Shown in pieces: positions 1 through 16,500 of a DNA stretch of 23,411 bases. The DNA lies in contig JAAOZP010000006.1 of the NCBI GenBank assembly GCA_011605725.1, positions 1-23,411 on the forward strand. Reading direction: 5' to 3'. The position numbers and the translations under genes are program-made. Within the stretch, counting starts at the first letter, position 1. The number at the start of each line of letters is the position of its first letter. Under the pieces are notes generated by a model. That model was not told where the DNA came from. It did no database searches and saw only the letters and a program-made list of their open reading frames with translations. The DNA comes from Nitrososphaerota archaeon (GTDB lineage: Archaea; Thermoproteota; EX4484-205; JAAOZP01).

Positions 1-3000
1 GTAGAATCTCAAAGGAGAATTGAAAGCGCTAAAGCTGGTTGGATGTCTTGGGGTTGCGCATATTGTAGAATCTCAAAGGAGAATTGAAAGTTGCCTCCCG
101 GCAGTCCTCCTCCTGGAATCTCCTCCTTAGTGTAGAATCTCAAAGGAGAATTGAAAGTAGGATACGTTAGCGGTGTTCACAACAGCTGTTTTGTTTTGTA
201 GAATCTCAAAGGAGAATTGAAAGAACGAGTTTTTGCCAGAACCCTCGGTCCAGTAGGCGATGTAGAATCTCAAAGGAGAATTGAAAGTAGCAATAAATCC
301 ATGCGTTCCAAGGGTTCTCCGACGGAGTAGAATCTCAAAGGAGAATTGAAAGGCTATTGGCTTGATACCGATGGCTCTACGATTTTCTGGCGTAGAATCT
401 CAAAGGAGAATTGAAAGTAGTGGTAGTCTGCATCCGATTCCCCCAGGTAGTAAAGAGGTAGAATCTCAAAGGAGAATTGAAAGAGTTTAACAAGCGTACC
501 TATGGTGTCGGATGGGGTCAGGTAGAATCTCAAAGGAGAATTGAAAGTTATATCTGTTAGCATGAGTATAACCATGAAACTTAAGTAGAATCTCAAAGGA
601 GAATTGAAAGTCATAAACGGCAACCCATGCATTCCAAGGGTTTTCAGGTAGAATCTCAAAGGAGAATTGAAAGACCAAGAATATCGGGAATAACCTTATG
701 ATTTTTTCCTTAAGTAGAATCTCAAAGGAGAATTGAAAGCTTGTGGCTTCCCCATGCGTCGCTTAACCTCTATGCGATGTAGAATCTCAAAGGAGAATTG
801 AAAGTGAGAAGCAACTGCCCTATGGCAAACGAATACCCTTCGTAGAATCTCAAAGGAGAATTGAAAGTCGTTTCCCCACTCTTTATCAGCTCGTCCAAAT
901 CGGCGTAGAATCTCAAAGGAGAATTGAAAGGAGAATAGAGTTCCTCCAGGTCACTTCCTTGTCGTTTCAAGTAGAATCTCAAAGGAGAATTGAAAGTTGA
1001 TAGATAGGGCGAGCAAGTTGATCAAGGAGCTTGCCGAGTAGAATCTCAAAGGAGAATTGAAAGTGAAGTCACGTTTACTCCTCCGGCAAACTGGGCTAAG
1101 ACGTAGAATCTCAAAGGAGAATTGAAAGCAGCCTCCTCCAGCAGCTCCTCCCACTCCCCTGGTTTCCTGTTGTAGAATCTCAAAGGAGAATTGAAAGCCT
1201 CCTGAATACTCTTTGAACAAGGGAGATGCCGGGCGTAGAATCTCAAAGGAGAATTGAAAGTAAAACCCTGGACGGAGGGTCGACAACCGCACCCGCGTAG
1301 AATCTCAAAGGAGAATTGAAAGACTCATTCAGGAGCTAAGACGCATTGGGACGAGTACTTCGGTAGAATCTCAAAGGAGAATTGAAAGAACGATTACAGG
1401 GGGAGCATCGTCGACCAGATCTCCGTAGAATCTCAAAGGAGAATTGAAAGCCTTCTCCCCGCCGACGCTGCACTTAATATCGCTCTGTTTCGTAGAATCT
1501 CAAAGGAGAATTGAAAGTTGAAACGGGGAGATTTCACGGAAAGGGGCTTAAAGGCTTAGTAGAATCTCAAAGGAGAATTGAAAGGTGTAATACCCTACGA
1601 CTCTAGCCACTCTTCACCACCGTAGAATCTCAAAGGAGAATTGAAAGTTCTTCTTTCTTTCCTCCTCAGCCTTTTTTCTTGCGTAGAATCTCAAAGGAGA
1701 ATTGAAAGCCGGCTTTTCTCCTTACGAATAATGTGGTTTCTTCCTCTGTAGAATCTCAAAGGAGAATTGAAAGCTTGTGGTCTCCCCCCGCTTGCTTGTC
1801 CGTCCTTGTCCCGTAGAATCTCAAAGGAGAATTGAAAGATATAGACGGCCAGCACTACTCCTAAAGCCCCCGCTCCAGTAGAATCTCAAAGGAGAATTGA
1901 AAGTTTTTGCTCTACTAACCTAAATGGAGGCTCAAAACTCGTGTAGAATCTCAAAGGAGAATTGAAAGAGAGCTTTATTTATTGACCACTCTATTTCTTC
2001 TTTTGGTTGTAGAATCTCAAAGGAGAATTGAAAGCCGTCATCGTGCCACCGGGGTTCTGGGCAACATAGGTGTTGTAGAATCTCAAAGGAGAATTGAAAG
2101 GCACAGACGAAGTCCCCCTCTGGGAATGGTTTCCCCATCTCTTTCCTCTGTAGAATCTCAAAGGAGAATTGAAAGTCGAATATCGACAGCCAGTTAATCG
2201 CTTGATACCGTCCAAGTAGAATCTCAAAGGAGAATTGAAAGATCCCAGAACCACGTTTTAATCAAGGATGCTTACGGTAGAATCTCAAAGGAGAATTGAA
2301 AGTCGTAGCCTACGAAGACCATTCCTCTCTGCCATGCTGTTATCGTAGAATCTCAAAGGAGAATTGAAAGATACTATAATCACTACCGTCCGGCAGTGTT
2401 ACCTTCACACGGGTAGAATCTCAAAGGAGAATTGAAAGGTAACAATATGGGAGTTAGAAATGCCGTGTAGCTTGCCCTGTAGAATCTCAAAGGAGAATTG
2501 AAAGTACATGCAGTGCCTGTTTTCATAGCCTTGCCAAGGCTTTCCAGTAGAATCTCAAAGGAGAATTGAAAGTCGATAATCTTGGAGACCTGCAGCCGGG
2601 TCATTTTCCTAAGTAGAATCTCAAAGGAGAATTGAAAGTACCAGTAGGGGCAGCAACTGCAGGTTGCCCCCTTCGGGTAGAATCTCAAAGGAGAATTGAA
2701 AGGTTTTTAAGTAAATCGTAGGCGGCAAATAGGCATTGGCTGGTAGTAGAATCTCAAAGGAGAATTGAAAGTGCTGCAGCCAAACCCTAGTCCAGAAGGA
2801 TTTAGCAGGTAGTAGAATCTCAAAGGAGAATTGAAAGTAGGTTATGATGATGTCTTCGGCTTCGTAGCTGAGGAGGAGCATGTAGAATCTCAAAGGAGAA
2901 TTGAAAGGCAGAGTTGAAAGATCCTTAAGAAAATCATTCCACCTGTGTAGAATCTCAAAGGAGAATTGAAAGTTATTCATGCTCCTCCTCAGCCTCCTCG

Positions 3001-3039
3001 AATTTGAAGCCGAGTAGAATCTCAAAGGAGAATTGAAAT
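1..3039 (+). CRISPR. CRISPR array: 47 copies of the 26-nt repeat GTAGAATCTCAAAGGAGAATTGAAAG with 46 spacers of about 35-49 nt; truncated at the window start, leader outside the window
   Basis: Repeats were counted at 1, 65, 132 ... 2947 and 3014. The last copy ends ATTGAAAT instead of ATTGAAAG. The + orientation is inferred from the canonical 3' ATTGAAAG handle and from degeneration at the right end. Confidence 0.99.
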
Positions 3040-3075
3040 AACGTATTTCGGGGAGAACCAGCTATTCCCGAGCTA

Positions 3076-3191
3076 GTTGAATCTCGTCAAAGAGATTAAA
3101 GGGTTATAGCAATAGTTGCTAAGGCTTTAAATAAGAATCTCGAAAAGGGAAATCATAAGTGGTTAATGATAACGATAAGAATCTCGCGCGC
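3076..3191 (+). repeat. Degenerate trailer repeats
   Basis: GTTGAATCTCGTCAAAGAGATTAAAG (3076-3101), TAAGAATCTCGAAAAGGGAAATCATAAG (about 3132-3159) and TAAGAATCTCGCGCGC (3176-3191) all keep the GAATCTC core, at decreasing spacing. Confidence 0.75.
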
Positions 3192-3255: not shown

Positions 3256-4350
3256 TCATCTCCTAGGTTCCCAGCCCGCTCGTCGACAAGTATGCGATAA
3301 TCGAAATTCAAACCCTTCGAAGTCAACGCGCGCTAAGGCACGAAGTTTACTCCTCTTATCTTCTAATTCACGTCTCAGGGTAACTTCTAGTCCGATGAAC
3401 CTGTTTTCCTCTATCATTGCAAATACATCGCATTCACCTACTTTCTTGCCTTCGTCCGTAACTTCTAACTTCGGGATACTGGGTATTCCACTGTTCACCA
3501 TTTCCCTAAAGACTTCAAGCTCCAAAATCCCTCTTTCGCATAGCATTAACGACAACGCAGATTTAACGGTTTGAAAATCTGGCTCATCAGGCAATATTCG
3601 AGGTAAGATATAATTAAGCTGTTTGTATAAAGTCCTTCCCGCGTTTTTGAATTCATCTAACTGACACAGTTTATTTGTGAGCATTATGCATGCTCTCTTC
3701 TTGCTTTTTCTCCATTCGTCAGTAAAATTTACCAATATTCCATCTTCAAAAGTAAATCCATCAACTAACCTGAGTAACTTGATTAATTGGGATGAAATAT
3801 GCACGGGATCTTTAGTTCCAACTAGTTCGCAAAAGTAAGCTTGGACTCCAGTTTCTCCTATTTTCTCCTTATGCAACCTAACTGTTCCTTCACTAATTAA
3901 TTGCTCTAATTCTTTTCCGCAAGCATAAATTGATAGAAAACCTCTTTTTTCCTTTGAAAATTTTTGTAGCTCTTTATTTAAAGATTGGAAAAAGATTTGT
4001 AAAGATTTTACACGTTCATTACCGTAATCTCGCAGTTCATTAAGGTAGCATTTTTTATTTTTCTCAAGCATTTTATTAATACTTTTTAATACCCTATGTT
4101 CCCTTTTAATGCTATAAAATAATTTCTTATATTCTAAATTCACGAAAACTGAAAATAGATCATGTCCTAAAAATCGGGTTTCTGAACCGCTTTCGTCAAA
4201 TCTCTTTATCGATCTATCAAGTATGGAGAGTATTACTTCGAAAATTTTGGGGCGAATTTCTTCAAGAACCGCATCTTCGTCCATCCAACTAAATTTTTCT
4301 TCAAAATCTGTTTTGACTTCTTCTCTCTTCTCTTTATCCCAAAAATTCAA
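3256..4350 (-). CDS. Uncharacterised protein with a C-terminal PD-(D/E)xK-like nuclease domain; probably frameshifted near 3300-3333, with the natural stop at 3201
   Basis: 364-aa ORF with a TTG start, 42 nt after the last RAMP gene. Motif GILELEV...GECDVFAM...FIGLEVT. The +1 frame gives a natural-looking tail (LTSKGLNFDYRILVDE...KKLLKNLS*). Confidence 0.7.
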   Translation of the reverse strand: MNFWDKEKREEVKTDFEEKFSWMDEDAVLEEIRPKIFEVILSILDRSIKRFDESGSETRFLGHDLFSVFVNLEYKKLFYSIKREHRVLKSINKMLEKNKKCYLNELRDYGNERVKSLQIFFQSLNKELQKFSKEKRGFLSIYACGKELEQLISEGTVRLHKEKIGETGVQAYFCELVGTKDPVHISSQLIKLLRLVDGFTFEDGILVNFTDEWRKSKKRACIMLTNKLCQLDEFKNAGRTLYKQLNYILPRILPDEPDFQTVKSALSLMLCERGILELEVFREMVNSGIPSIPKLEVTDEGKKVGECDVFAMIEENRFIGLEVTLRRELEDKRSKLRALARVDFEGFEFRLSHTCRRAGWEPRR

Positions 4351-4392: not shown

Positions 4393-5310
4393 CTATGGGC
4401 ATAGCCATTCCACGAACCTATCAAAGCTGACCCGTTCAGCTTTCCTCAGCGGATTTCCTATCCTGAACTCCACAGTTCTTCCATCACTTTCCGTATCCAA
4501 TATGTAAAACTCTCCACCAATAAGCTCCAAATGACCTAGGCCCGCGCTCTTTCTAGCACCGATTGAAACACCTAGTGTTTTGACAAGTTTAAGCGTTGAC
4601 GCAAAAAGCCTAGAATCCTCCTCGCCCCGTAGAAGGTTGTCCATGACCATTTTAAGCACGATGCGTCCCCTTGGCATGGCATTAATAAAGTATAGCAAGT
4701 TTTCCTTGACCTTCCCGCTTTTCCTATCTATCCCTATTCCAGGCCTTAGTGAAGGAGTTGCCATTATCAGCGAGTCGAAAAACCTAATCTTCCCAGCCAT
4801 TTTATTGCCGTAGAGTTTGCTTACGGGACAGTGTAACGCAAGGTACTCCTCTGCCATGGCTTCAAGCAATTCCTTCTCAGCACTTAAGCCTCTTTCCCTC
4901 ACCTCTTTTACCTCCTCTATGGCGTAGCCCAGTCCAACGAGGATTTCCTCCAGTTCTCTGGCTCCATGGGGTATATTCGATTCTCCTCCCTGAAGCGCCC
5001 TGACGAAGTTTTCTAAATATTTCCTGAATTTTTCCTCATTACTTCGATAACTAATTCCCATTTTCTCCGAGTAAAGCTCGACAGCCAATCCTGCGAGTCC
5101 TCCGAACTTGGCTTGTCTTGCTAGTTGCTCGCTCAGATTCCTAAACATGCCCTTCCATGTTGATGACGGTATTACTAACTCGCCTCCCGGAAGCCTGATG
5201 AGGTCCCTAACAACCTCATCTCCGCCGATTCCCACGTGTATTGGCGACTTAGCTTCGAACTCAACGATCCCGATGATTTTCATCTTTATCGGATTTAAAT
5301 GCAGAATCAT
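4393..5310 (-). CDS. Type III RAMP, Cas7 group (Csm3-like, with helical insertion)
   Basis: SPIHVGIG, VIPSSTWKGMFR, GIGIDRKSG and the G-rich loop IGARKSAGLG; ATGA overlap with the upstream gene. Confidence 0.9.
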   Translation of the reverse strand: MILHLNPIKMKIIGIVEFEAKSPIHVGIGGDEVVRDLIRLPGGELVIPSSTWKGMFRNLSEQLARQAKFGGLAGLAVELYSEKMGISYRSNEEKFRKYLENFVRALQGGESNIPHGARELEEILVGLGYAIEEVKEVRERGLSAEKELLEAMAEEYLALHCPVSKLYGNKMAGKIRFFDSLIMATPSLRPGIGIDRKSGKVKENLLYFINAMPRGRIVLKMVMDNLLRGEEDSRLFASTLKLVKTLGVSIGARKSAGLGHLELIGGEFYILDTESDGRTVEFRIGNPLRKAERVSFDRFVEWLCP

Positions 5311-6422
5311 TCTCCTCTACCTCCCATTGGATGTTCCCTGAGGGGGGTGAGCATGTTAACGCCAGTAACTGGTACTCCTCCCGCTACTTCCACAGTTCCT
5401 AAGAACTCGAGTGCACTAATGACTTTTGTTACTTCCCCTTCTCCCTCTACCTTTGCTACTAGAATCGAGCCATTATTGCCGCTTAAGCTGAAGATCGGCC
5501 TCTCCATGTTCCTCGCCATATCCCATCCGGAAATTAATTCCCTAGTCCTACCGTAAGCTGCCCCTATCCTTAATACTCCTTTAACACTCATGCCAATTCT
5601 CTTCGCAATTTTCTCAAGTTCTATAACATGTGGATAAGTATAATACTTCTCGCCATCTATTGAGATCATTTGGGAAATAGAATACAGTACAAGAGTAGCT
5701 TTATTTTCAATCGCATTTTTTACTGACTCAGCCTTTTCGTCGAGTGATATCTCTTTAAGCATTGTCAATTCAGCTCTACCAAATCCTCTGGAAACTCCTC
5801 TGCCAACTGCGAATTTCATACCTATTTCTAAGTTTACCTCATCAGGGACGCATAGCGTTGACCAGAATTCTTGACCTGACGAAATCGATTCGTATTCAAA
5901 CAGCATCCCTCTTTGATGGGAACCCTTACGTTTATTCATTCCAACGGATACCGTACGGTATGAACGCACCTTCACCTCTCTTAGGCGATTCTGGATAGGA
6001 ATAACCGGATCTGGATGAAGAGGGGAGATGGCCATATGCCCTTTAGAGCATAACACTTTATACTTCTGAGGATTGCGAGCAATAAAATCTTGTAGCACTT
6101 CATCCACATAGTTAATACGTTCCTTGCCCTCTGGAGCATCTTCATGGGGAATTTTACACTCGTATGCAAACGGGTGGCAGGGATATGCCCTTTTCTCATC
6201 GTCAATAGGATATGCTGGTGAAGCAATTATCCGGGGCTCTGTCGCCTCGCGTTTTAATAGCTCTTCATCCAATGCTCCTTTCCAATATAGGCTTGAGATC
6301 AATGCTCCTCTTAGCATTGAAGCAGGAATGTACTTAAGGGCAGAGAGAAATCCTTTTTCTGTTTTCTTAAACGTGATGTTTGCCGGCGATATGAGTTTGA
6401 AGTGTAATTCGTAAAACTTCAT
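5307..6422 (-). CDS. csx10: Type III-D Cas5-group RAMP (Csx10-like)
   Basis: YIPASMLRGAL, SPAYP, VGRGVSRGFG and C-terminal ISGWD...NGS motifs. Start placed at the ATGA overlap (6422), after the RBS GGAGGTGG. Confidence 0.8.
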   Translation of the reverse strand: MKFYELHFKLISPANITFKKTEKGFLSALKYIPASMLRGALISSLYWKGALDEELLKREATEPRIIASPAYPIDDEKRAYPCHPFAYECKIPHEDAPEGKERINYVDEVLQDFIARNPQKYKVLCSKGHMAISPLHPDPVIPIQNRLREVKVRSYRTVSVGMNKRKGSHQRGMLFEYESISSGQEFWSTLCVPDEVNLEIGMKFAVGRGVSRGFGRAELTMLKEISLDEKAESVKNAIENKATLVLYSISQMISIDGEKYYTYPHVIELEKIAKRIGMSVKGVLRIGAAYGRTRELISGWDMARNMERPIFSLSGNNGSILVAKVEGEGEVTKVISALEFLGTVEVAGGVPVTGVNMLTPLREHPMGGRGE

Positions 6423-7075
6423 TCCCATAACCACCTCCTCAAATCTTCCAAAAGAACTAACCAATCCCTCTCAAGCTTCTCTCTAAGAGGAGCCTCGTCT
6501 TCTATCATTAAGTCTATGATTGAAGCTCTGCCAAAACGTCCTATTCTCAGCTCTGCTAAGCCGAGAAGCAATAGGCCCAATAGCCTCGGATTTTCTTCTC
6601 GCACGCTTATATTGCCACTAAAGACGCTCCCGGGCGGCACATACTCGAGTGTGAATAAAGCTCCTTCTGCAGCCTTCATCGATTGGTCATCTATACGAAC
6701 TCTCGTCATCTCAAACATTTGCATGTGGTTAACAGGTTCGAAGTCTGAGACTAGAAGCTTGCTCGGCACGCTCCCCTTGGGATATCCGAATAGCTCGCAG
6801 ACGTCACAAACTCCTCCTGAGGAATGTGCTCTCTCAATCCCTTCCGGGCTGATTTCTCCACAGCTCTTGAAGCCATAGGGGGTTGCAATCCTGCTTGTTG
6901 CAGACCTTAGGCTTCCCTTAAAGCTTGATCCAGGAATGTATATTTCATAGGAATATTCCCTCCCTTTCTTCCTCAATACACGTGTAAATGGAATATCACA
7001 ACCAGCTGCACTCGGGTGGCTCCATCCCACACACATTAAACCAATCGTCTTTATCTTGACGGAGAAAGTTATCAT
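6419..7075 (-). CDS. Type III RAMP, Cas7/Csm3-like
   Basis: YIPGSSFKGSLRS, the Zn motif CDVCELFG and TRVRID. Start moved to 7075 (ATGA overlap with the cas10 stop, RBS GGAGGTGGAG). Confidence 0.9.
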   Translation of the reverse strand: MITFSVKIKTIGLMCVGWSHPSAAGCDIPFTRVLRKKGREYSYEIYIPGSSFKGSLRSATSRIATPYGFKSCGEISPEGIERAHSSGGVCDVCELFGYPKGSVPSKLLVSDFEPVNHMQMFEMTRVRIDDQSMKAAEGALFTLEYVPPGSVFSGNISVREENPRLLGLLLLGLAELRIGRFGRASIIDLMIEDEAPLREKLERDWLVLLEDLRRWLWE

Positions 7076-9723
7076 ATGGCTCCACCTCCAACTATCTTTA
7101 TCATTCTGTCTGCATCGATCAAGCATGAACTTTCTCCAACCTTCTGTGGAGTCAGCTTCAGGATCTCTGCATAGGGAGATGAACTCCCCATTCTCGTCGC
7201 TTGACGGATTCCATAAAGACGTGCCACAATAGGTATGTAGCTATTACTCTTAACCCTGGAACGGGCCACTGAAAGCGAGCTACCTATCGCGCTCCTAATC
7301 CCCTTAACCCTATCCTGTTCCTTCTTCACACTTTCCTTAAATCCATTGCCACATAACTCAGGAAATCTTGAAAGAGCGTAGCATTTTCCGAATGCCTCCG
7401 CGTCGCTGGAATACCCATTTATAACGATTCTAAACAAGTCTTCTACACCATAAGGCTGTGAACTGAGGAATTGTTCTTTCAACAAATCAAATCTTGCCTC
7501 TGCAGAACTATCCGATAGTGTTCCGCTATCCACAGCGTCGAAGCAGAATAGACTTAATGACGGATTTTTCCTCGCCTCTGCTTTAGCTTTTCCCATCAGC
7601 ATGGAGGCCGCCGAGACTATTGCCCATACGCTAGCCCTTGCCGGCGAAGATACCAAACCCATTGATAGCCCCCTTGCGCCTCCCATGTTAGCAGAAAACT
7701 CTCTTCCAAGCACTAAGGCAAACGGCAGGATGCCCCATGAGGGCATGAAGAATAATGCATCGTCCCCTCCAGCATACAATAACCCCAGTTTCACTGAGAC
7801 CGCTGCTCTAGCCGCTTCATCATCGTTTTTAGAAATATTCTGCACGCCTTCCCATATCTTTTCAACACTATATTCGATCGCCTTCTTTAGCGCCAAGTCT
7901 ATCCTAGCGCTTCTCTCATACGCATCTGCAGCAGAGAGACAAGTCGCCATGAAAACGCCCATAAGGTTTCCATCCACCTTCATAATTCCAAGGTTTCTAA
8001 GGCGGATTTTCCCTTCTAGTTCCTCCTTATTATGACCAGCTATGAGTTCCACTATCCATTTACTTGCCCCGTCCCAATCCGCATGAAAGACTTGTCTAGG
8101 AACGAATGTCCTATTCTTCACAATAATTTCGGATTCATATTTTACTCTAAAGTGAAGATCTCCTCCTATTTCATACAACTTTTTACACGTTCCACAGACC
8201 TCCTTTTCCCCTTCAGGGGTTAAGACCTTCTCTTCAGGAGGATTAAGGTAACAGAGCTTACATAGATTCCTAACGCCTTTCCCCGGGCTCGTCTTTACAA
8301 ACCGGTCTTCCGGCTTCATGCTGAACTTCTTAAACTGAATTTTCTCCGTGAGGTTCTGCGTGGTCTCTCTATAATTAGTACTTAAGGGGACTGATGCAAA
8401 CCTGACGGATATCTCCTTTATCTCTTCACAAGCCTTTTCCAGCGTACCGACTAAATTCGATGGAAGGATTAGCTGTATAACTCCTCCTGCCGAGTAAATT
8501 ATGGCCTCATAAGGGAGCCAAACATCGCGGCTTACATGGTGCTGAATCATAGACGGTATTTGAGCCATCACCGCCGCATCGATCATAAGGCTCGCGGCAA
8601 CGACCACCCTGAGTTCCTCAGACTTGAAGACAAAGGATTGGATGTTTCCAACGTCTATCAACGCCATCTCAACGCCATCGACGATTCTACCACCAGCCAT
8701 TTCGACGGGTTTTGTGTAATTCTCTGCTCTTTTGCGTATTTCTTCAACGAACATCCTACTGAGATCATCTATGGATGCATTGTCATATTGATGTAGCTTT
8801 TTCCAAAATTCCCAGCATTCTGGCCCAGCCCTATAAGCAGCATCCTCATTAATCCCTGCTTTGTTAGATAAATTACGTATCCTCTCACCAATTATCGTCC
8901 CGCCCAAACTTATAAGTCCATCGAAGAATGTAGCAGCATCATCAGCTTCCGACAACATCTGGGCTTCTCTGCTTTGAATCTCCTTTATCTCGCTCACGTA
9001 ACTCTTTCCTTCTAAAAGGATCTCAGCTATTTCTGATGAAGCCGTGACAGGATCTGTGTATCTGAAGGGCTTGCCCATATCCCGCAACATGGCTGCCAGT
9101 CTTAACATAGCCGTCTCTTTTCTAGGAAGCCCATTGGCCGTGGCCTTAGCCCACGCTATAGCGGAAGCGAGGAGGAGATGAGGCAGAAGCCCAGAAGTAT
9201 TCAAGGGGGGCCTAGTGTCCGCAGGCAGAGCGAACCAACAGTGCTCGATTTTCTCAGAGAGGTCAGCATCAGAAAGGATGGCTATGGGCTTTAGTTCATT
9301 GAGTCTCTTCACAATATCTTCTCTGTAGGTTAATTCAATGAACCTCACCGGGCTCCTGATCTCGTCCTGAATTTTTTCGAAGCCGATTAGCCTGTAAAGC
9401 AGGTAAGTTTTCAGGGGATTTGGCATCACCGCAGGGATTGTTTCCCTTATCAATGGAACCCTTAGAAAAAGCGCTATCAAGTCGGCGAGTAGCTCCAATT
9501 CCTCTGTTTGGTTCAAATTTCCCTCTCGCATGCGTTTAGCGAATTCTAACGCCTCGGATAGGAACTCCTTTAACCTTCGTAATACATTTTTCCAGATTTC
9601 TACGTCTTGTGGTGTTACCTTTCTCGTCGAAACTACTCTGTCTTCATCCCTGTAAGGAACAAAGAATGCTTTAAAGACCGGATAACCGGGTTCTTCAAAT
9701 TTCACTTCGTCAAAGCTTCTCAA
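7072..9723 (-). CDS. cas10: Cas10 large subunit; Palm GGDD intact, HD site degenerate
   Basis: 883 aa with ADTRP, DVGNIQSFVF, the CxxC...CxxC Zn finger, KVDGNLMG and LLYAGGDD (GGDD at 7759-7770). The HD position reads LRDMGKP. Confidence 0.97.
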   Translation of the reverse strand: MRSFDEVKFEEPGYPVFKAFFVPYRDEDRVVSTRKVTPQDVEIWKNVLRRLKEFLSEALEFAKRMREGNLNQTEELELLADLIALFLRVPLIRETIPAVMPNPLKTYLLYRLIGFEKIQDEIRSPVRFIELTYREDIVKRLNELKPIAILSDADLSEKIEHCWFALPADTRPPLNTSGLLPHLLLASAIAWAKATANGLPRKETAMLRLAAMLRDMGKPFRYTDPVTASSEIAEILLEGKSYVSEIKEIQSREAQMLSEADDAATFFDGLISLGGTIIGERIRNLSNKAGINEDAAYRAGPECWEFWKKLHQYDNASIDDLSRMFVEEIRKRAENYTKPVEMAGGRIVDGVEMALIDVGNIQSFVFKSEELRVVVAASLMIDAAVMAQIPSMIQHHVSRDVWLPYEAIIYSAGGVIQLILPSNLVGTLEKACEEIKEISVRFASVPLSTNYRETTQNLTEKIQFKKFSMKPEDRFVKTSPGKGVRNLCKLCYLNPPEEKVLTPEGEKEVCGTCKKLYEIGGDLHFRVKYESEIIVKNRTFVPRQVFHADWDGASKWIVELIAGHNKEELEGKIRLRNLGIMKVDGNLMGVFMATCLSAADAYERSARIDLALKKAIEYSVEKIWEGVQNISKNDDEAARAAVSVKLGLLYAGGDDALFFMPSWGILPFALVLGREFSANMGGARGLSMGLVSSPARASVWAIVSAASMLMGKAKAEARKNPSLSLFCFDAVDSGTLSDSSAEARFDLLKEQFLSSQPYGVEDLFRIVINGYSSDAEAFGKCYALSRFPELCGNGFKESVKKEQDRVKGIRSAIGSSLSVARSRVKSNSYIPIVARLYGIRQATRMGSSSPYAEILKLTPQKVGESSCLIDADRMIKIVGGGAI

Positions 9724-10681
9724 TGGTGGACACCTCGTCCTTTACGTCTAGCTCTCCCTCGTAGGTTCTCATGGCGCTCTCAACAAGGGTCCTAACAAGA
9801 GTGTTCAGATCTTCTCCCTCTAAGCTCCCCCCAGGGTTGATGGAGATATTTTCAAACTTTATATGCTCCGAATACTCAGAAAGCTTTAGCCTTTCCAAGT
9901 GGTATATTATCCTACCGAGTTCATATCCTCCAACCTGCTTTCTGTATTTAAACCTACCAAGCAGAACGGCCCTGCCTCTAGCCGAAACTTTCAAACCCAT
10001 TCCAATAAAAAGGAGGCCCAGCTCCTCTTGCCTGAGATTGAGAAAACTGACGGAACCGCGGAACTTGGAGTTCGGGGGAGCGGCGAGAACGTTCACCTCA
10101 TGTTCCAGATCAAGCCTTTCCAACCGGATTCCTTCTCCCTTAAAGTCTGAGAAGCTTATAAGACCTTGGAGGCCGTTCGTGCCGAACAAATCGCAGACCA
10201 AACATACTTGCTGGTTCCTCGTTGAATCGCAAGACCAACCTCTATTCTCCATAAGAACCTCCCCCCAAATCTTATAGTGCCTCCATCCATGGAGACGAGC
10301 AACTGGCGGACGAGTGGGAGCAGTAGCCCGTATGAAGCATGACTTCGTTTTTCCATTTCTGGCTCTGAAGCTGAGTTCAATCCTTGACCTGATGTTTCCT
10401 TTAACAGAGGATGCGGGAATAGTCGGCACATTATTCGTCGTATGGAAACTCGAGTACTTCTCCTCAAACTTAACGCTGGATATAGCCTCGCTTGTTAAGC
10501 CCCCGTACTTATTGAGAACCTTAATCAATTCTTCCTCATTCATCAGATGTTGTTCTTGCGCCGAGCCAATATACAAATAGGAAATAGGTTCGATAGTAAC
10601 CGAGAGAGAACCTACTAGATGCTCAAACCTGCTCCTATCCCTCGGTCGAGCTCTAATGACTTCGACTCCTAGAGATTGCAT
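9710..10681 (-). CDS. Type III RAMP, Cas7 group
   Basis: YLYIGS, TIPASSVKGNIRSRIEL, CLVCDLFGT and LLGRFKYR. Confidence 0.88.
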   Translation of the reverse strand: MQSLGVEVIRARPRDRSRFEHLVGSLSVTIEPISYLYIGSAQEQHLMNEEELIKVLNKYGGLTSEAISSVKFEEKYSSFHTTNNVPTIPASSVKGNIRSRIELSFRARNGKTKSCFIRATAPTRPPVARLHGWRHYKIWGEVLMENRGWSCDSTRNQQVCLVCDLFGTNGLQGLISFSDFKGEGIRLERLDLEHEVNVLAAPPNSKFRGSVSFLNLRQEELGLLFIGMGLKVSARGRAVLLGRFKYRKQVGGYELGRIIYHLERLKLSEYSEHIKFENISINPGGSLEGEDLNTLVRTLVESAMRTYEGELDVKDEVSTIEKL

Positions 10682-11585
10682 TTATCCAGGCCTCCTTGAG
10701 CTTTTCTAAAACGCTCCATACGTCATGGTCCTCCGCCACCTGCCACCCATCCTCAATTCTAACAATCCCTTGTAAGTTTACTTCACTGTCAAGACCCTCT
10801 TCCAAACTTTTTAATATTCCATCAACACTTTGGGGGAACTCCCTATTCTTGAATCTTATATTCTCAAACTTGACTTCTCCGAAGCCCCTTGTCTTGAATC
10901 CGCCTATTTTAACTTGACCTTCATTAATCATGCGTAAAACGATGCCTAAGAGGCCTAGCGCGTAATTTGGAAGGTTTGTACACTCCATTTTAAACCTAAA
11001 CTTGGCGCCTGGCTCCACATACTCCACAGTATAAAGGGCATGTTCCATTACGGCCCCGGTTCTCCTATTGATTGCTATTCCGGTTCTCGCACCAAGCCTG
11101 ACTGGAAGCGGGTTTCCATTCTCATCAAGAGGATATGCATCGCTGAAGCGGATTTTGCCTGCATAACCCAGTGAACCAAATATTTTGCACATTAAACATG
11201 CTTTCTTGAAGAAGGCATCCATAGCATCCTTCGAATTCCTACTCCTCAACTTAAGTTCCACGTATCTTCCAAGGGTCTGTTCCCCGAGCTCAGGATCCTC
11301 TATCTGCTTAAGATCCATACATGTTTCTTTGGCTAACCCAGTGCACACATCGAGTTTAGCGCTCTTCGCCATACTCGATGTATAACTCCTGAAAATGCCT
11401 TTGATGCTTGAGCCCGGAATGTACGGAAGAAATTCATCTTTATATGGAATCCTGAGGACGGCTAGGTCAACAACTGCACCCAGTGGAGGCTCTCTACCAC
11501 TACCGATACGAAGTGGCGAGCTGTTCGTTAAATACCCCTCTACGACTGTCTCTCTAAGCAGGATAGACGAAGATGTCCAATACAT
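10653..11585 (-). CDS. csm3: Type III Csm3-like Cas7 RAMP (Csx7-like)
   Basis: PLRIGSG..VVD (putative catalytic Asp), YIPGSSIKG, CLMCKIFG and IGGFKTRGFG. Confidence 0.9.
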   Translation of the reverse strand: MYWTSSSILLRETVVEGYLTNSSPLRIGSGREPPLGAVVDLAVLRIPYKDEFLPYIPGSSIKGIFRSYTSSMAKSAKLDVCTGLAKETCMDLKQIEDPELGEQTLGRYVELKLRSRNSKDAMDAFFKKACLMCKIFGSLGYAGKIRFSDAYPLDENGNPLPVRLGARTGIAINRRTGAVMEHALYTVEYVEPGAKFRFKMECTNLPNYALGLLGIVLRMINEGQVKIGGFKTRGFGEVKFENIRFKNREFPQSVDGILKSLEEGLDSEVNLQGIVRIEDGWQVAEDHDVWSVLEKLKEAWINAISRSRSH

Positions 11586-12292
11586 TATTTACCTCCCCCT
11601 AACCGACCTTCCGATAGTATCTTGATTTCTCCGCCTTCCAAGGAGTATGTCGACCACTTGGCTGTCCTGAGCTTTAAAAGACCACATCCCACTCCTTTTC
11701 TCGCGCCTACACTTATTCCCATTTTAAGCAAGTAGTCAAGCAAGCCCCCCAATAACTCTGCCCTCGGATCGTCTATATCCGGTTCAGGTAAGAATCTGAT
11801 GTTCAAGACATCCATTCTAAACGACCAGAGAGTATTTGGGACCACTAACTCTTCAGTAAATAAAAGCCCGGGTCTCGCTGCATGAAATTCCCTGTCAATG
11901 CTGACTCCGGTTTTAGTGAAGGTGCGTGCCGAACCATTCTTAGGATACGCATCGTAAATCTTGATATGGCTCGCTAATTCTGTTGAGCCGAATATTCCAC
12001 ATATGGAACAAAAGTTTCCATCTTTAGCCTCCTGCTTAATTTCATCTTCATCCCAGGGAGAATGGGCACGCATTCCTTTAGATAACGCTATCGACTCGAC
12101 CAGTGACCTGAAAACACCTTTTAAGCTGGACCCTGGGATACAGGGTATCCCGTCAATCCTGTACACAGCAACGTCTACTGCAGCACCTAGTGGTGGCTCT
12201 CTGCCGGTGCCAATACGAAGCGGTGTTTCGTTGATCAGCTCTCCCTCTATCTTCGTAATGAGCTTTATTAGGTTAAAATCTCTGTATTCCAT
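11585..12292 (-). CDS. csm3: Type III Csm3-like Cas7 RAMP
   Basis: PLRIGTG..AVD, IPGSSLKG, CSICGIFG and VGARKGVGCG. Confidence 0.9.
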   Translation of the reverse strand: MEYRDFNLIKLITKIEGELINETPLRIGTGREPPLGAAVDVAVYRIDGIPCIPGSSLKGVFRSLVESIALSKGMRAHSPWDEDEIKQEAKDGNFCSICGIFGSTELASHIKIYDAYPKNGSARTFTKTGVSIDREFHAARPGLLFTEELVVPNTLWSFRMDVLNIRFLPEPDIDDPRAELLGGLLDYLLKMGISVGARKGVGCGLLKLRTAKWSTYSLEGGEIKILSEGRLGGGK

Positions 12293-12299
12293 CTCCCAT

Positions 12300-12674
12300 T
12301 CACGTAGCGCGTACTCCCGCTAGCATTCTTAATAAGTCTGTGAATTCGTTAGGGGTCCTTTCAAGTCTGGTTTTCTCAACTATTTCGAAGATCCATTTCG
12401 CTAATCCAAGAAGTTTCCTTGCATCTTCCTTTCCTCCCTCTCGGTATATTCGCTCTAGTGCATTAGCCACTAAATCGGCTGTTCTCTTCCCTTTTCCAAG
12501 CCTCGAGGTCTGTCTGTAGGCAAAGGCAGCGGCAACAAGTAGGCTTGCCTTAGGATCTTGAACGTAATCTAAGGATGATAAGAGGTTTTCGAATTGCGAT
12601 TTTGTTAAGCCATCAAATTTAGCCTGTACCCCTATTTTTGTAGCAATATCAAGAGCCTCCTTATCGGAAATCAT
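12300..12674 (-). CDS. cas11: Cas11 small subunit (Csm2-like)
   Basis: 124-aa helical protein, first gene of the operon, with YRQTSRLG and ARKLLGLAKWIFE. Confidence 0.8.
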   Translation of the reverse strand: MISDKEALDIATKIGVQAKFDGLTKSQFENLLSSLDYVQDPKASLLVAAAFAYRQTSRLGKGKRTADLVANALERIYREGGKEDARKLLGLAKWIFEIVEKTRLERTPNEFTDLLRMLAGVRAT

Positions 12675-13166: not shown

Positions 13167-14558
13167 TTATCCTTCCGGGTTAAATAACCACTTACATATT
13201 TCTGGTAATTTTTCTTTTATATATCTTAGTTCTAGCTCTTCATTCTGTTTTCTTACTTCAACCATAGTTCTTTCTAATCCCGAGTGCGCGAAAAAGTTTC
13301 TTTTAATATCTGATGTGCTTAGAGCCTTTTCTTTCTTCTCTTCCGAAGTCCCTTCTTGATATAACTCGTTTAGACAAGTCCATTGCTGGGTAACCTTGTT
13401 CTTCTTATTATCTATTTCACTTAGGTCTCTTTCTAGAAACCTCTTATTTAACGATAGATCTAGTTTATCATAGATTTCGGTGAATCTTTCTTTAATCTCA
13501 GTAATGCTCACTCCATCTTTTATCTCTAATCCTTCCATTTCGCTAGATATCCATTTGAATAAGGCAAGTGAATAGAACAGGTTGAAAACATCCTTCCACT
13601 TCAAGTTATTGACAGCGACTATTTTTTCGCTTAGCACTGGTTTCGTTTTTTCTAGGAAGAAGCATATTAGTTCCTTTTCAAGAACTTCTACTTTTTGATC
13701 AAGGTTTATTAACCCGCTATAAAAAGCTAGAGGCACATTATACTTTATAGAATGAAATGCTTTGACGAGGTTGTCTAACAAATATTTCAGTTTCGTCTTT
13801 TCGTCTTTAGTTTCATAAGAAATCCTTTTTTTCTCCTCTGGATTAGTTTCGACATAGTATTCGATTTTACATAAAGTTTCTAAATTCTGGGGCTTGATTG
13901 GTAAAGTGAAAAATGCTTTTACATCATACTCGTTAACGAATATTCTTATGGTGTGACGCAACTCTTCACTAAGCTTAGTTACTGGTTCAGAGATTGCGTA
14001 AAAAGCGTTAATTTTTTTCTCAGTTATTCCATTTCTTAACTTATCATAGACAATTATAGCTCTTAAGGCTTCCAGCATGGAGGTAACGTAAATGTTGTAT
14101 CCGGTAGACATGTCTGTAACTACTATTGTTTTCTCTCCGTTTTCATTAATTCTTTTCATTATGTCGAGAAATATCTGTACAGCAACATTGCCAGGAGTGT
14201 TTTTGAAGCTAAATCTTTCTTGACCGATCATATAGTTTCCGATAGCATTAATTGGTAAGATCTCAAAATCTTTGTAATTGCTTATATTACTTATCTTGTC
14301 TCGGAGGCTCTCAGCTAATGAAACTCTGTCTGTTAAATACTTTTGTATGTCCTGCCCTCTGTAAAGGCTGTTTGGACAAACGTATATTATCTTGGCTTCA
14401 TATCCTTTCTTCTCCCTATAATAAGAATATAGAACTTCAGATGAAAGCTTAAAATCCCTTCTTATGAAACTGCCTGCATCATCACCGTCTTCTATTTCAT
14501 AAGTAACGCTTGAATATCCTTCCAGATTACCAAGAACTTGGTATATCAGGGCCTTCAT
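13167..14558 (-). CDS. csx1: Csx1 CARF-HEPN cyclic-oligoadenylate-activated RNase
   Basis: N-terminal CARF (QVLGN..Y, DMSTGYN) and C-terminal HEPN RxxxxH (KRNFFAHSGLE). Confidence 0.93.
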   Translation of the reverse strand: MKALIYQVLGNLEGYSSVTYEIEDGDDAGSFIRRDFKLSSEVLYSYYREKKGYEAKIIYVCPNSLYRGQDIQKYLTDRVSLAESLRDKISNISNYKDFEILPINAIGNYMIGQERFSFKNTPGNVAVQIFLDIMKRINENGEKTIVVTDMSTGYNIYVTSMLEALRAIIVYDKLRNGITEKKINAFYAISEPVTKLSEELRHTIRIFVNEYDVKAFFTLPIKPQNLETLCKIEYYVETNPEEKKRISYETKDEKTKLKYLLDNLVKAFHSIKYNVPLAFYSGLINLDQKVEVLEKELICFFLEKTKPVLSEKIVAVNNLKWKDVFNLFYSLALFKWISSEMEGLEIKDGVSITEIKERFTEIYDKLDLSLNKRFLERDLSEIDNKKNKVTQQWTCLNELYQEGTSEEKKEKALSTSDIKRNFFAHSGLERTMVEVRKQNEELELRYIKEKLPEICKWLFNPEG

Positions 14559-14698: not shown

Positions 14699-15481
14699 AT
14701 GGTGTTGAGGTTGAAGCTCTCGGTAATTGCCCCGATAGGTACTTCTCCGCCTGTGGTTACGGAGTTTGTTCAATATGTTGAGGATGGTTTGAGAGAGCGT
14801 ATTAGTGATCTTACGGTTATAAGCACTAGTGATCCTTATGTTCTGAGTTGCACCGATCTCGCTGAGCAAGCTGTCCGGGATAGGTATCCTCATATTTATT
14901 TCCACAGGCATCAGCTTGGTTTCGAGGATATTGATTCTCAGGACAGGCTTTACGAGTTTATGCTTGACGTGGCTAAGCTGCTTAGAAATCAGGTGGAGCA
15001 GTTTAACGCCAGTAAGATTTACGTGAACTCTGCCGGAGGTAGGAAGGATGCGCTCATAGCGCTTTCAACGCTCTGTCAGTTCCTGCCTGTCTCAGGAATA
15101 TTTCACATCGTGATGCCTGATGTTAAGACGTTCAACGTACAGCTGGAGAGGATTAAGCATGAGATCGAGGAGCTCGGCAGGGCGGTTGATAAGAGAGCTT
15201 ACTACTTGAGTAAGAGGGATTTGTTCGACCCTCTGATGTATCCTCATCCGAGCACCTACTCTGTGGTTAGGATTCCGGTTGTCCCCTTTCCCCCGGGGGT
15301 TCTGGGGAATCTGGCGAAAATATTGAAGGGGGGTAAGACGGAGATAGTGACTACTGGATTAGAGCAGAGGCACATAGAGATGCTTGTAGATATTGGGCTT
15401 ATCACTGCAGACAAGAGATACGTGTACCCTACGGATGAGGGGAGGCTCTTATCCACGTTGATTAAAACGCTCGTCGAATAA
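14699..15481 (+). CDS. CARF + wHTH protein, Crn1/Csx14-like ring nuclease
   Basis: APIGTSPPVVTE, EDID and VNSAGGRK motifs of the Sso2081/Csx14-type CARF; C-terminal wHTH (LVDIGLI...YPTDEGR); divergent from csx1. Confidence 0.8.
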   Translation: MVLRLKLSVIAPIGTSPPVVTEFVQYVEDGLRERISDLTVISTSDPYVLSCTDLAEQAVRDRYPHIYFHRHQLGFEDIDSQDRLYEFMLDVAKLLRNQVEQFNASKIYVNSAGGRKDALIALSTLCQFLPVSGIFHIVMPDVKTFNVQLERIKHEIEELGRAVDKRAYYLSKRDLFDPLMYPHPSTYSVVRIPVVPFPPGVLGNLAKILKGGKTEIVTTGLEQRHIEMLVDIGLITADKRYVYPTDEGRLLSTLIKTLVE

Positions 15482-16423: not shown

Positions 16424-16500
16424 GTAGAATCTCAAAGGAGAATTGAAAGCTTTTGGAAATCAATGTCCCGCCGTAAAACTGAACCTAAAAATCTGCGCCA
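16424..16500 (+). CRISPR. Mini-array: one perfect repeat, a 36-nt spacer and a degenerate repeat, behind an AT-rich leader-like region
   Basis: Exact repeat at 16424-16449, spacer at 16450-16485, and TAAAAATCTGCGCC at 16486, which resembles the main-array terminal TAAGAATCTCGCGCGC. Confidence 0.8.

Follow-up and report, generated by a model that had tools for sequence, protein, structure and literature searches.

A trailer-end spacer in a hot-spring Brockarchaeota CRISPR array matches the 23S rRNA gene of a Parcubacteria clade and points to a candidate host-symbiont pair

The last well-preserved spacer of a CRISPR array in a hot-spring archaeon is antisense to bacterial 23S rRNA, and sequence comparison traces its source to the 23S rRNA gene of a Parcubacterium (Patescibacteria) of the clade that includes Parcubacteria bacterium GBS-2. 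The spacer is real, non-self and cross-domain, with a named target and a protospacer adjacent motif (PAM), and the case is built on this single spacer. The reading preferred here, to which a probability of about 0.48 is given, is that it represents an old immune record of clade DNA that entered the archaeon through contact with an episymbiont or parasite.

Host genome and organisation of the array

The window, that is, the whole stretch of 23,411 nucleotides that was analysed, is one contig (C15) of a 2.23-Mb genome that is 93% complete. The host, a hot-spring Ca. Brockarchaeota archaeon (phylum Thermoproteota), has an EF-2 with 96% identity to a Candidatus Brockarchaeota archaeon cluster and about 60% to Bathyarchaeia. 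A second contig, C11, carries a complete type I-A locus (Csa3, Csa5, Cas7/Csa2, Cas5a, Cas3', Cas3'', Cas6, Cas4, Cas2, Csa1 and Cas1), and Cas1, Cas2, Cas4/Csa1 and the I-A Cascade/Cas3 are thereby encoded beside the array. The features of the window are the following:

1..3039, + strand: trailer half of the CRISPR array, with 47 copies of the 26-nt repeat in the window
3014..3039, + strand: last full repeat, whose final G is replaced by T, at position -1 of the crRNA 5' tag
3040..3078, + strand: anchor spacer, 39 nt, antisense to GBS-2-clade 23S rRNA, protospacer 5' flank CCA (crRNA sense)
3079..3101, + strand: degenerate terminal repeat of the 25-nt Brockarchaeota type, with 21 identities, 2 mismatches and 2 gaps
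3102..3159, + strand: older relic unit, a spacer-like stretch of 33 nt and a more decayed repeat at 3135-3159
3179..3191, + strand: putative third decayed repeat, a stub running into a GC palindrome motif, as judged by inspection
4393..12674, - strand: type III-D-like effector genes (Csx7-type RAMPs, a Csx10-like protein and Cas10)
7072-9723, - strand: Cas10, with GGDD present and the HD dipeptide absent
13167..14558, - strand: Csx1 (CARF and HEPN), a cOA-activated RNase
14699..15481, + strand: Cas_NE0113-family CARF protein, presumably a ring nuclease

The type III operon is closed by a 364-aa gene (3256-4350) that has no Pfam or NCBIfam match.

Contig C11 ends in 36 copies of the identical 26-nt repeat, preceded by the leader and cas1, and its last 27 nt are the first 27 nt of the window, so that the two halves form a single array of about 82 spacers. 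The leader and cas1 fix the orientation: the array runs along the + strand and its trailer lies near 3100, and the crRNA sense is the one that pairs with rRNA, as a prior sequence-only reading of this DNA had proposed. That reading had placed a spacer antisense to bacterial 23S rRNA at 3040-3076. The sequence that it gave is found at 3040-3075 and the antisense match holds, whereas the true extent is 3040-3078, a length (39 nt) that fits the mode of the array (39-40 nt) and sets the start of the terminal repeat at 3079. Its remark that the preceding repeat is the only mutated full repeat is borne out by both contigs, where 3014-3039, with its final G>T, is the sole variant among full-length repeats.

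The repeat that follows the spacer is degenerate, also as proposed, and resembles the 25-nt repeat of Brockarchaeota congeners, which is present in 8 of 25 relatives; alignment to the current 26-nt repeat needs at least four gaps and is a worse fit. The end of the array is therefore native to the lineage, which contradicts the suggestion that the array was inherited from a bacterium. Further out, the repeat at 3135-3159 shares 21 identities with the congeners' 25-nt repeat (a score reached by 0 of 2000 shuffles), and the stub at about 3179 follows it. Since decayed repeats lie beyond 3078, the anchor is the last well-preserved spacer and not strictly the oldest; of the label "oldest spacer", only the trailer position stands. 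A target search with the 33-nt relic stretch after 3102 found none. The G>T change in the last full repeat can be seen as the first step of a decay gradient, and fits ordinary trailer decay.

Some further observations concern the array. The GC palindrome that cuts the last repeat stub at 3179-3191 recurs in the congeners G016 and G002 (L087:1485-1535; L088), where it borders a solitary repeat and a short array, as if one and the same joining process had moved array pieces. A solitary exact repeat lies at 16424-16449, 13 kb from the array and behind an AT-rich stretch; the 36 nt after it have no target in clade DNA, and a putative second repeat aligns poorly (15 identities). The spacers at 288-326 and 611-647 have a common 18-nt stretch (94%) that gives an identical short peptide on translation. 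In the spacer preceding the anchor, the low-complexity segment 2978-3001 matches host contig C19 at 23/24, and the remainder is without match.

The source of the anchor spacer

The spacer (3040-3078) matches the 23S rRNA of Parcubacteria GBS-2 at 38/39 (E 1.4e-11, against the GBS-2 genome), a near-full-length LSU hit that no viral sequence surpasses. When 185,579 species genomes were scanned for exact copies of the 29-nt core, two records came up, GBS-2 itself and one contig from an assembly of Ca. Calidifonticultor, both with the site in bacterial LSU rRNA, while among 400 genomes of the host phylum none came within three mismatches of this core. The JGI metagenomes, scanned with 34 exact bases, yielded 18 loci, 16 at 38/39 and two at 37/39. 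In a 23S tree rooted only by a distant host row, the 38/39 sequences (16 distinct loci) and GBS-2 form one branch (support 93/99). Only three of 120 GBS-2 relatives, nearly all with genomes below 1 Mb, reach 36/39. The GatA protein of a clade contig shares 82% identity with that of GBS-2; among named organisms, its closest matches are from Ca. Nealsonbacteria (74%). GBS-2 recurs in Great Boiling Spring records; a literature search of partial coverage found no paper linking GBS-2 to Parcubacteria. The acquisition from a bacterial neighbour envisaged by the sequence-only reading is thus supported, and the neighbour can be named.

Other sources were considered and rejected. Host rRNA reaches only 27/36 and 29/39, no viral contig matches, and what phages and plasmids yield are bacterial 23S fragments of a generic kind, at best 28/31 and 27/29. 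With Rfam, the 39-nt fragment goes undetected.

Patterns demanding the exact 3' end of the spacer found nothing in the species genomes or the JGI metagenomes, and hence no perfect match there. The lone mismatch to GBS-2 falls in a small hairpin of the rRNA, on its 5' arm, and the arms of this hairpin pair in all 35 target-like loci, 34 by Watson-Crick pairs and one with a wobble. In one of three other hot-spring runs described below (X3), a 23S contig stops aligning at precisely position 3040; its flank agrees with clade members at 27/30 positions and carries CGTA, the exact complement of the TACG in the hairpin arm of the spacer. Because the two arms covary, this complementarity indicates that a clade member outside the sequenced set probably matches at 39/39, and that the single mismatch is probably no mismatch against the true target, as deduced from the X3 flank.

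Two features of the rRNA loci can be noted here. On the Ca. Calidifonticultor (Actinomycetota) contig (L029:1-8000), the rRNA operon shares the spacer-region hairpin and the 23S 5' end with GBS-2 and adjoins genes for RNase J, DapA and DapB; the contig is possibly chimeric. Several target-clade 23S genes (L059, L060, L063, L065 and L068) contain insertions that lie 1.4-2.5 kb downstream of the protospacer and are absent from GBS-2; by eye, the open reading frames in these insertions resemble LAGLIDADG homing endonucleases. Breaks made by such enzymes could favour spacer capture.

Acquisition from DNA

Of the 16 loci at 38/39, 13 have CCA on the 5' side of the protospacer (crRNA sense), as does the X3 allele. 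This is a flank of the CCN type, known as the PAM of archaeal type I-A systems, and CC would occur by chance with a probability of about 0.12 per site of this 23S gene. The spacer is also enclosed by repeats in an array that has a leader, and its length is typical. In Pyrococcus furiosus, the PAM used in acquisition is CCN and rRNA genes are hotspots (PMC5737086), and rRNA hotspots of spacer acquisition have also been described for type III systems (PMC13575424). The present case resembles that of P. furiosus in its rRNA-gene protospacer and 5' CCN flank, and both cases in an adaptation by Cas1, Cas2 and Cas4 common to type I and type III effectors. It differs in that those spacers are self spacers obtained in laboratory assays, whereas the Brockarchaeota spacer is directed at non-self across domains and has become fixed in a natural population. 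A second protospacer for the host PAM was not found, the search of the phylum returning repeat matches only. A virus sharing the ENPWNAW motif of spacers 288-326 and 611-647 was sought for the same purpose, and the sole match was unrelated (25/39).

Taken together, the I-A adaptation module, the CCA flank and the lack of any reverse transcriptase (RVT_1) domain found in the 93%-complete genome make DNA capture the simplest reading, and the spacer was most likely captured from bacterial DNA. It is very probable overall that this was GBS-2-clade DNA, a probability shared between entry by contact and accidental uptake.

Occurrence in other hot-spring runs

Contigs of three other hot-spring runs (X1-X3), from three studies that all date from 2025 and possibly belong to one campaign, cover 3021-3124 (3010-3124 in X3) gap-free and with 3-4 differences. 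They bridge the junction between the spacer and the terminal repeat, which makes an assembly chimera unlikely. Fixed differences further on, for example at 3172, identify these contigs as other strains. Upstream, the alignment covers just 19-30 letters, in a search with a 31-letter rule; in X3 the 31 letters upstream of the anchor differ from those of the window, so another spacer precedes the same anchor there. Clade-type 23S flanks and the array end co-occur in all three runs, and the spacer thus matches the chromosome of a small-genome organism found alongside it. As for the retention of the anchor in related genomes, which the sequence-only reading had raised, it was not found in the 40 relatives searched, and these relatives use a different repeat.

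Predicted behaviour of the guide

The duplex of the guide with GBS-2 23S rRNA is complete, with one G-U pair and a computed energy of -73.9 kcal/mol, and the flank of this target pairs with the crRNA tag at only 2/8 positions, which by established type III rules would make the bacterial 23S a non-self target. With host 23S rRNA the guide pairs at 29/39, with six true mismatches and four G-U wobbles (-48.0 kcal/mol); these include positions +1, +4, +5 and +7, near the tag, with mismatches at +1 and +4, and the DNA flank of the host site is TGC, that is, non-CC. By these features the spacer is not a self-targeting (autoimmune) one. The mismatches and the non-CC flank leave little autoimmunity to attenuate, and the proposal of an attenuated self-guide or sensor finds no footing here. 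The established rules predict that the host's own sequence would trigger neither the I-A nor the III-D complex.

Entry of the DNA and alternative explanations

The course of events proposed here starts from the 23S rRNA gene of a GBS-2-clade Parcubacterium living in the same springs. The bacterium would attach to Brockarchaeota as an episymbiont or parasite, as its relatives do on methanogens, and its DNA would reach the cytoplasm; this is the weakest step. The I-A adaptation machinery encoded on C11 (Cas1, Cas2, Cas4 and Csa1) would then very probably have cut double-stranded bacterial DNA beside the CCA PAM and inserted the new spacer at the leader, from where it later shifted to the trailer. 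There, the decay of the flanking repeats would make recombinational loss unlikely, so that strains would keep the anchor with no need for selection. The crRNA, if processed, would guide I-A Cascade/Cas3 against bacterial rDNA entering the cell and the III-D complex against the 23S RNA of the bacterium, while host rRNA and rDNA would be spared.

Several known associations bear on the step of contact. Ca. Nealsonbacteria are reported as ectosymbionts on Methanothrix, and Ca. Nealsonbacteria, Ca. Yanofskyibacterium and Minisyncoccus attach to archaea (Methanothrix and Methanospirillum), the reported hosts all being methanogens (PMC10936435, PMC13293708). These cases share with the present one a partner or target in the Parcubacteria, with Ca. 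Nealsonbacteria nearest by named GatA, and an archaeal host, here putative; they differ in that their hosts are methanogens and CRISPR goes unmentioned in the two papers, whereas the array described here belongs to a hot-spring member of the Thermoproteota. As summarised in PMC12133352, which cites Esser et al. 2023, Ca. Altiarchaeum carries spacers against its episymbiont Ca. Huberiarchaeum. That account is alike in that an archaeal array holds spacers against the chromosome of a small-genome cellular organism of the same habitat. According to the same summary, however, the target there is a DPANN archaeon, many spacers are directed at it and FISH shows the cells attached, whereas in Brockarchaeota the target is a bacterium, matched by one spacer, and attachment is a proposal. 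A literature search of partial coverage, which is no proof of novelty, found no paper joining CRISPR, spacers, episymbiont, CPR and cross-domain.

Multiple spacers, as in a pair of the Altiarchaeum type, were looked for in the genome of a related species, and one of 84 matched. Against 760 kb of clade DNA, where reversed-spacer controls (n=84) reached 74% at best, none of the other 83 host spacers rose above these controls, by DNA or by translation, and neither did 39 congener spacers or repeat flanks by DNA; as this DNA comes from species related to a true target that is unsequenced, only conserved loci such as rRNA could show in the screen. A match in G403, considered as a further clade spacer, is a low-complexity pyrimidine run. 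Likewise, no signal of gene transfer specific to Brockarchaeota and the clade was found. The GBS-2 peroxiredoxin, 79% identical to that of the host, was rejected as a transfer, as it is equally similar to WOR-3 and Bathyarchaeia copies.

Other gene neighbourhoods are recorded as observations. GBS-2 has adjacent arginine decarboxylase-like and deoxyhypusine synthase-like genes, assigned by eye (L143:8292-9859; 67% and 60% to host proteins), and the host copy of the latter adjoins the type I-A locus. A Parcubacteria contig (L065:552-7383) bears an apparent amino-acid biosynthesis cluster, unusual for Patescibacteria, with ArgC-like (48% to the host's copy), RimK/LysX-like and isopropylmalate-type enzymes.

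The main competitor of contact, and a serious one at somewhat less than even odds, keeps the same source and the same I-A capture but lets the DNA enter by accident, as environmental DNA, in a vesicle or in a mispackaged virion, so that no host relationship is implied and the spacer survives only as a trailer anchor. The single match among 84 spacers, the position of rRNA as the one locus recognisable across species and the lack of specific gene transfer are all what such uptake would leave, and a trailer anchor is retained by the ordinary dynamics of arrays without any function. It accounts less well for the fact that the only cellular target to be identified is a bacterium with a small genome whose relatives parasitise archaea, in runs that contain the 23S of many taxa, which is a qualitative argument. 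No ComEC domain was found in the host genome, and contact would explain how DNA entered such a host; other archaeal routes of DNA import may exist. On balance, a Brockarchaeota host for the clade is plausible, and incidental DNA uptake is nearly as likely.

The remaining explanations are far less probable. In the least unlikely of them, selection keeps the guide as a type III sensor that reads bacterial rRNA or, weakly, host rRNA, with the tag mutation tuning the cOA/Csx1 output. The antisense orientation, the target flank unpaired with the tag, the GGDD of Cas10, the presence of Csx1 and the retention of the spacer end in three runs would all suit a sensor, but this orientation arises by chance in 50% of cases, the neighbouring repeats are decaying, the congeners are without the spacer, the site is buried in the 50S subunit, and the host duplex is much weaker than the bacterial one (-48 against -74 kcal/mol) and mismatched at +1 and +4. 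Reverse transcription of the spacer from bacterial rRNA, the RNA-derived origin that the sequence-only reading had entertained, is very improbable: rRNA is the most abundant RNA and a type III system is present, but Cas1 is an unfused protein of 331 aa within the I-A locus, no reverse transcriptase was found fused to it, near it or elsewhere in the 93%-complete genome, and the CCA flank is of the DNA type. Just as improbable, and largely refuted, is that the array end came from a bacterium or that the spacer arose by chimeric assembly with an rRNA contig. A position at the array end in a metagenome-assembled genome invites that suspicion; against it stand the gap-free bridging of the junction in the three other runs, the Brockarchaeota type of the terminal repeat and the lack of any array of the 26-nt repeat in GBS-2.

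Implications for the hosts of Patescibacteria

To our knowledge, hosts have been identified for very few Patescibacteria, and the small number of archaea reported among them are methanogens. With an archaeal spacer that has a PAM-flanked target in one clade of hot-spring Parcubacteria, a specific and testable candidate host-symbiont pair can be named, and the existing reads of runs X1-X3, with thousands of spacer-bearing records, can be used for a test of the host now. The finding adds to the known CRISPR memory against cellular symbionts, here in the form of an archaeal array that records a bacterium. Screening archaeal spacers against rRNA databases could find hosts even where the symbiont genome is lacking. 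If the uptake was incidental, the spacer would still be a clean case, of modest interest, of bacterial chromosomal DNA that entered an archaeon and became fixed. Under the preferred reading of contact, it can be put forward tentatively that thermophilic Patescibacteria of the GBS-2 clade may be episymbionts or parasites of Brockarchaeota, which would be the first non-methanogen archaeal host for the phylum, and that CRISPR would record, and may resist, a bacterial parasite across domains.
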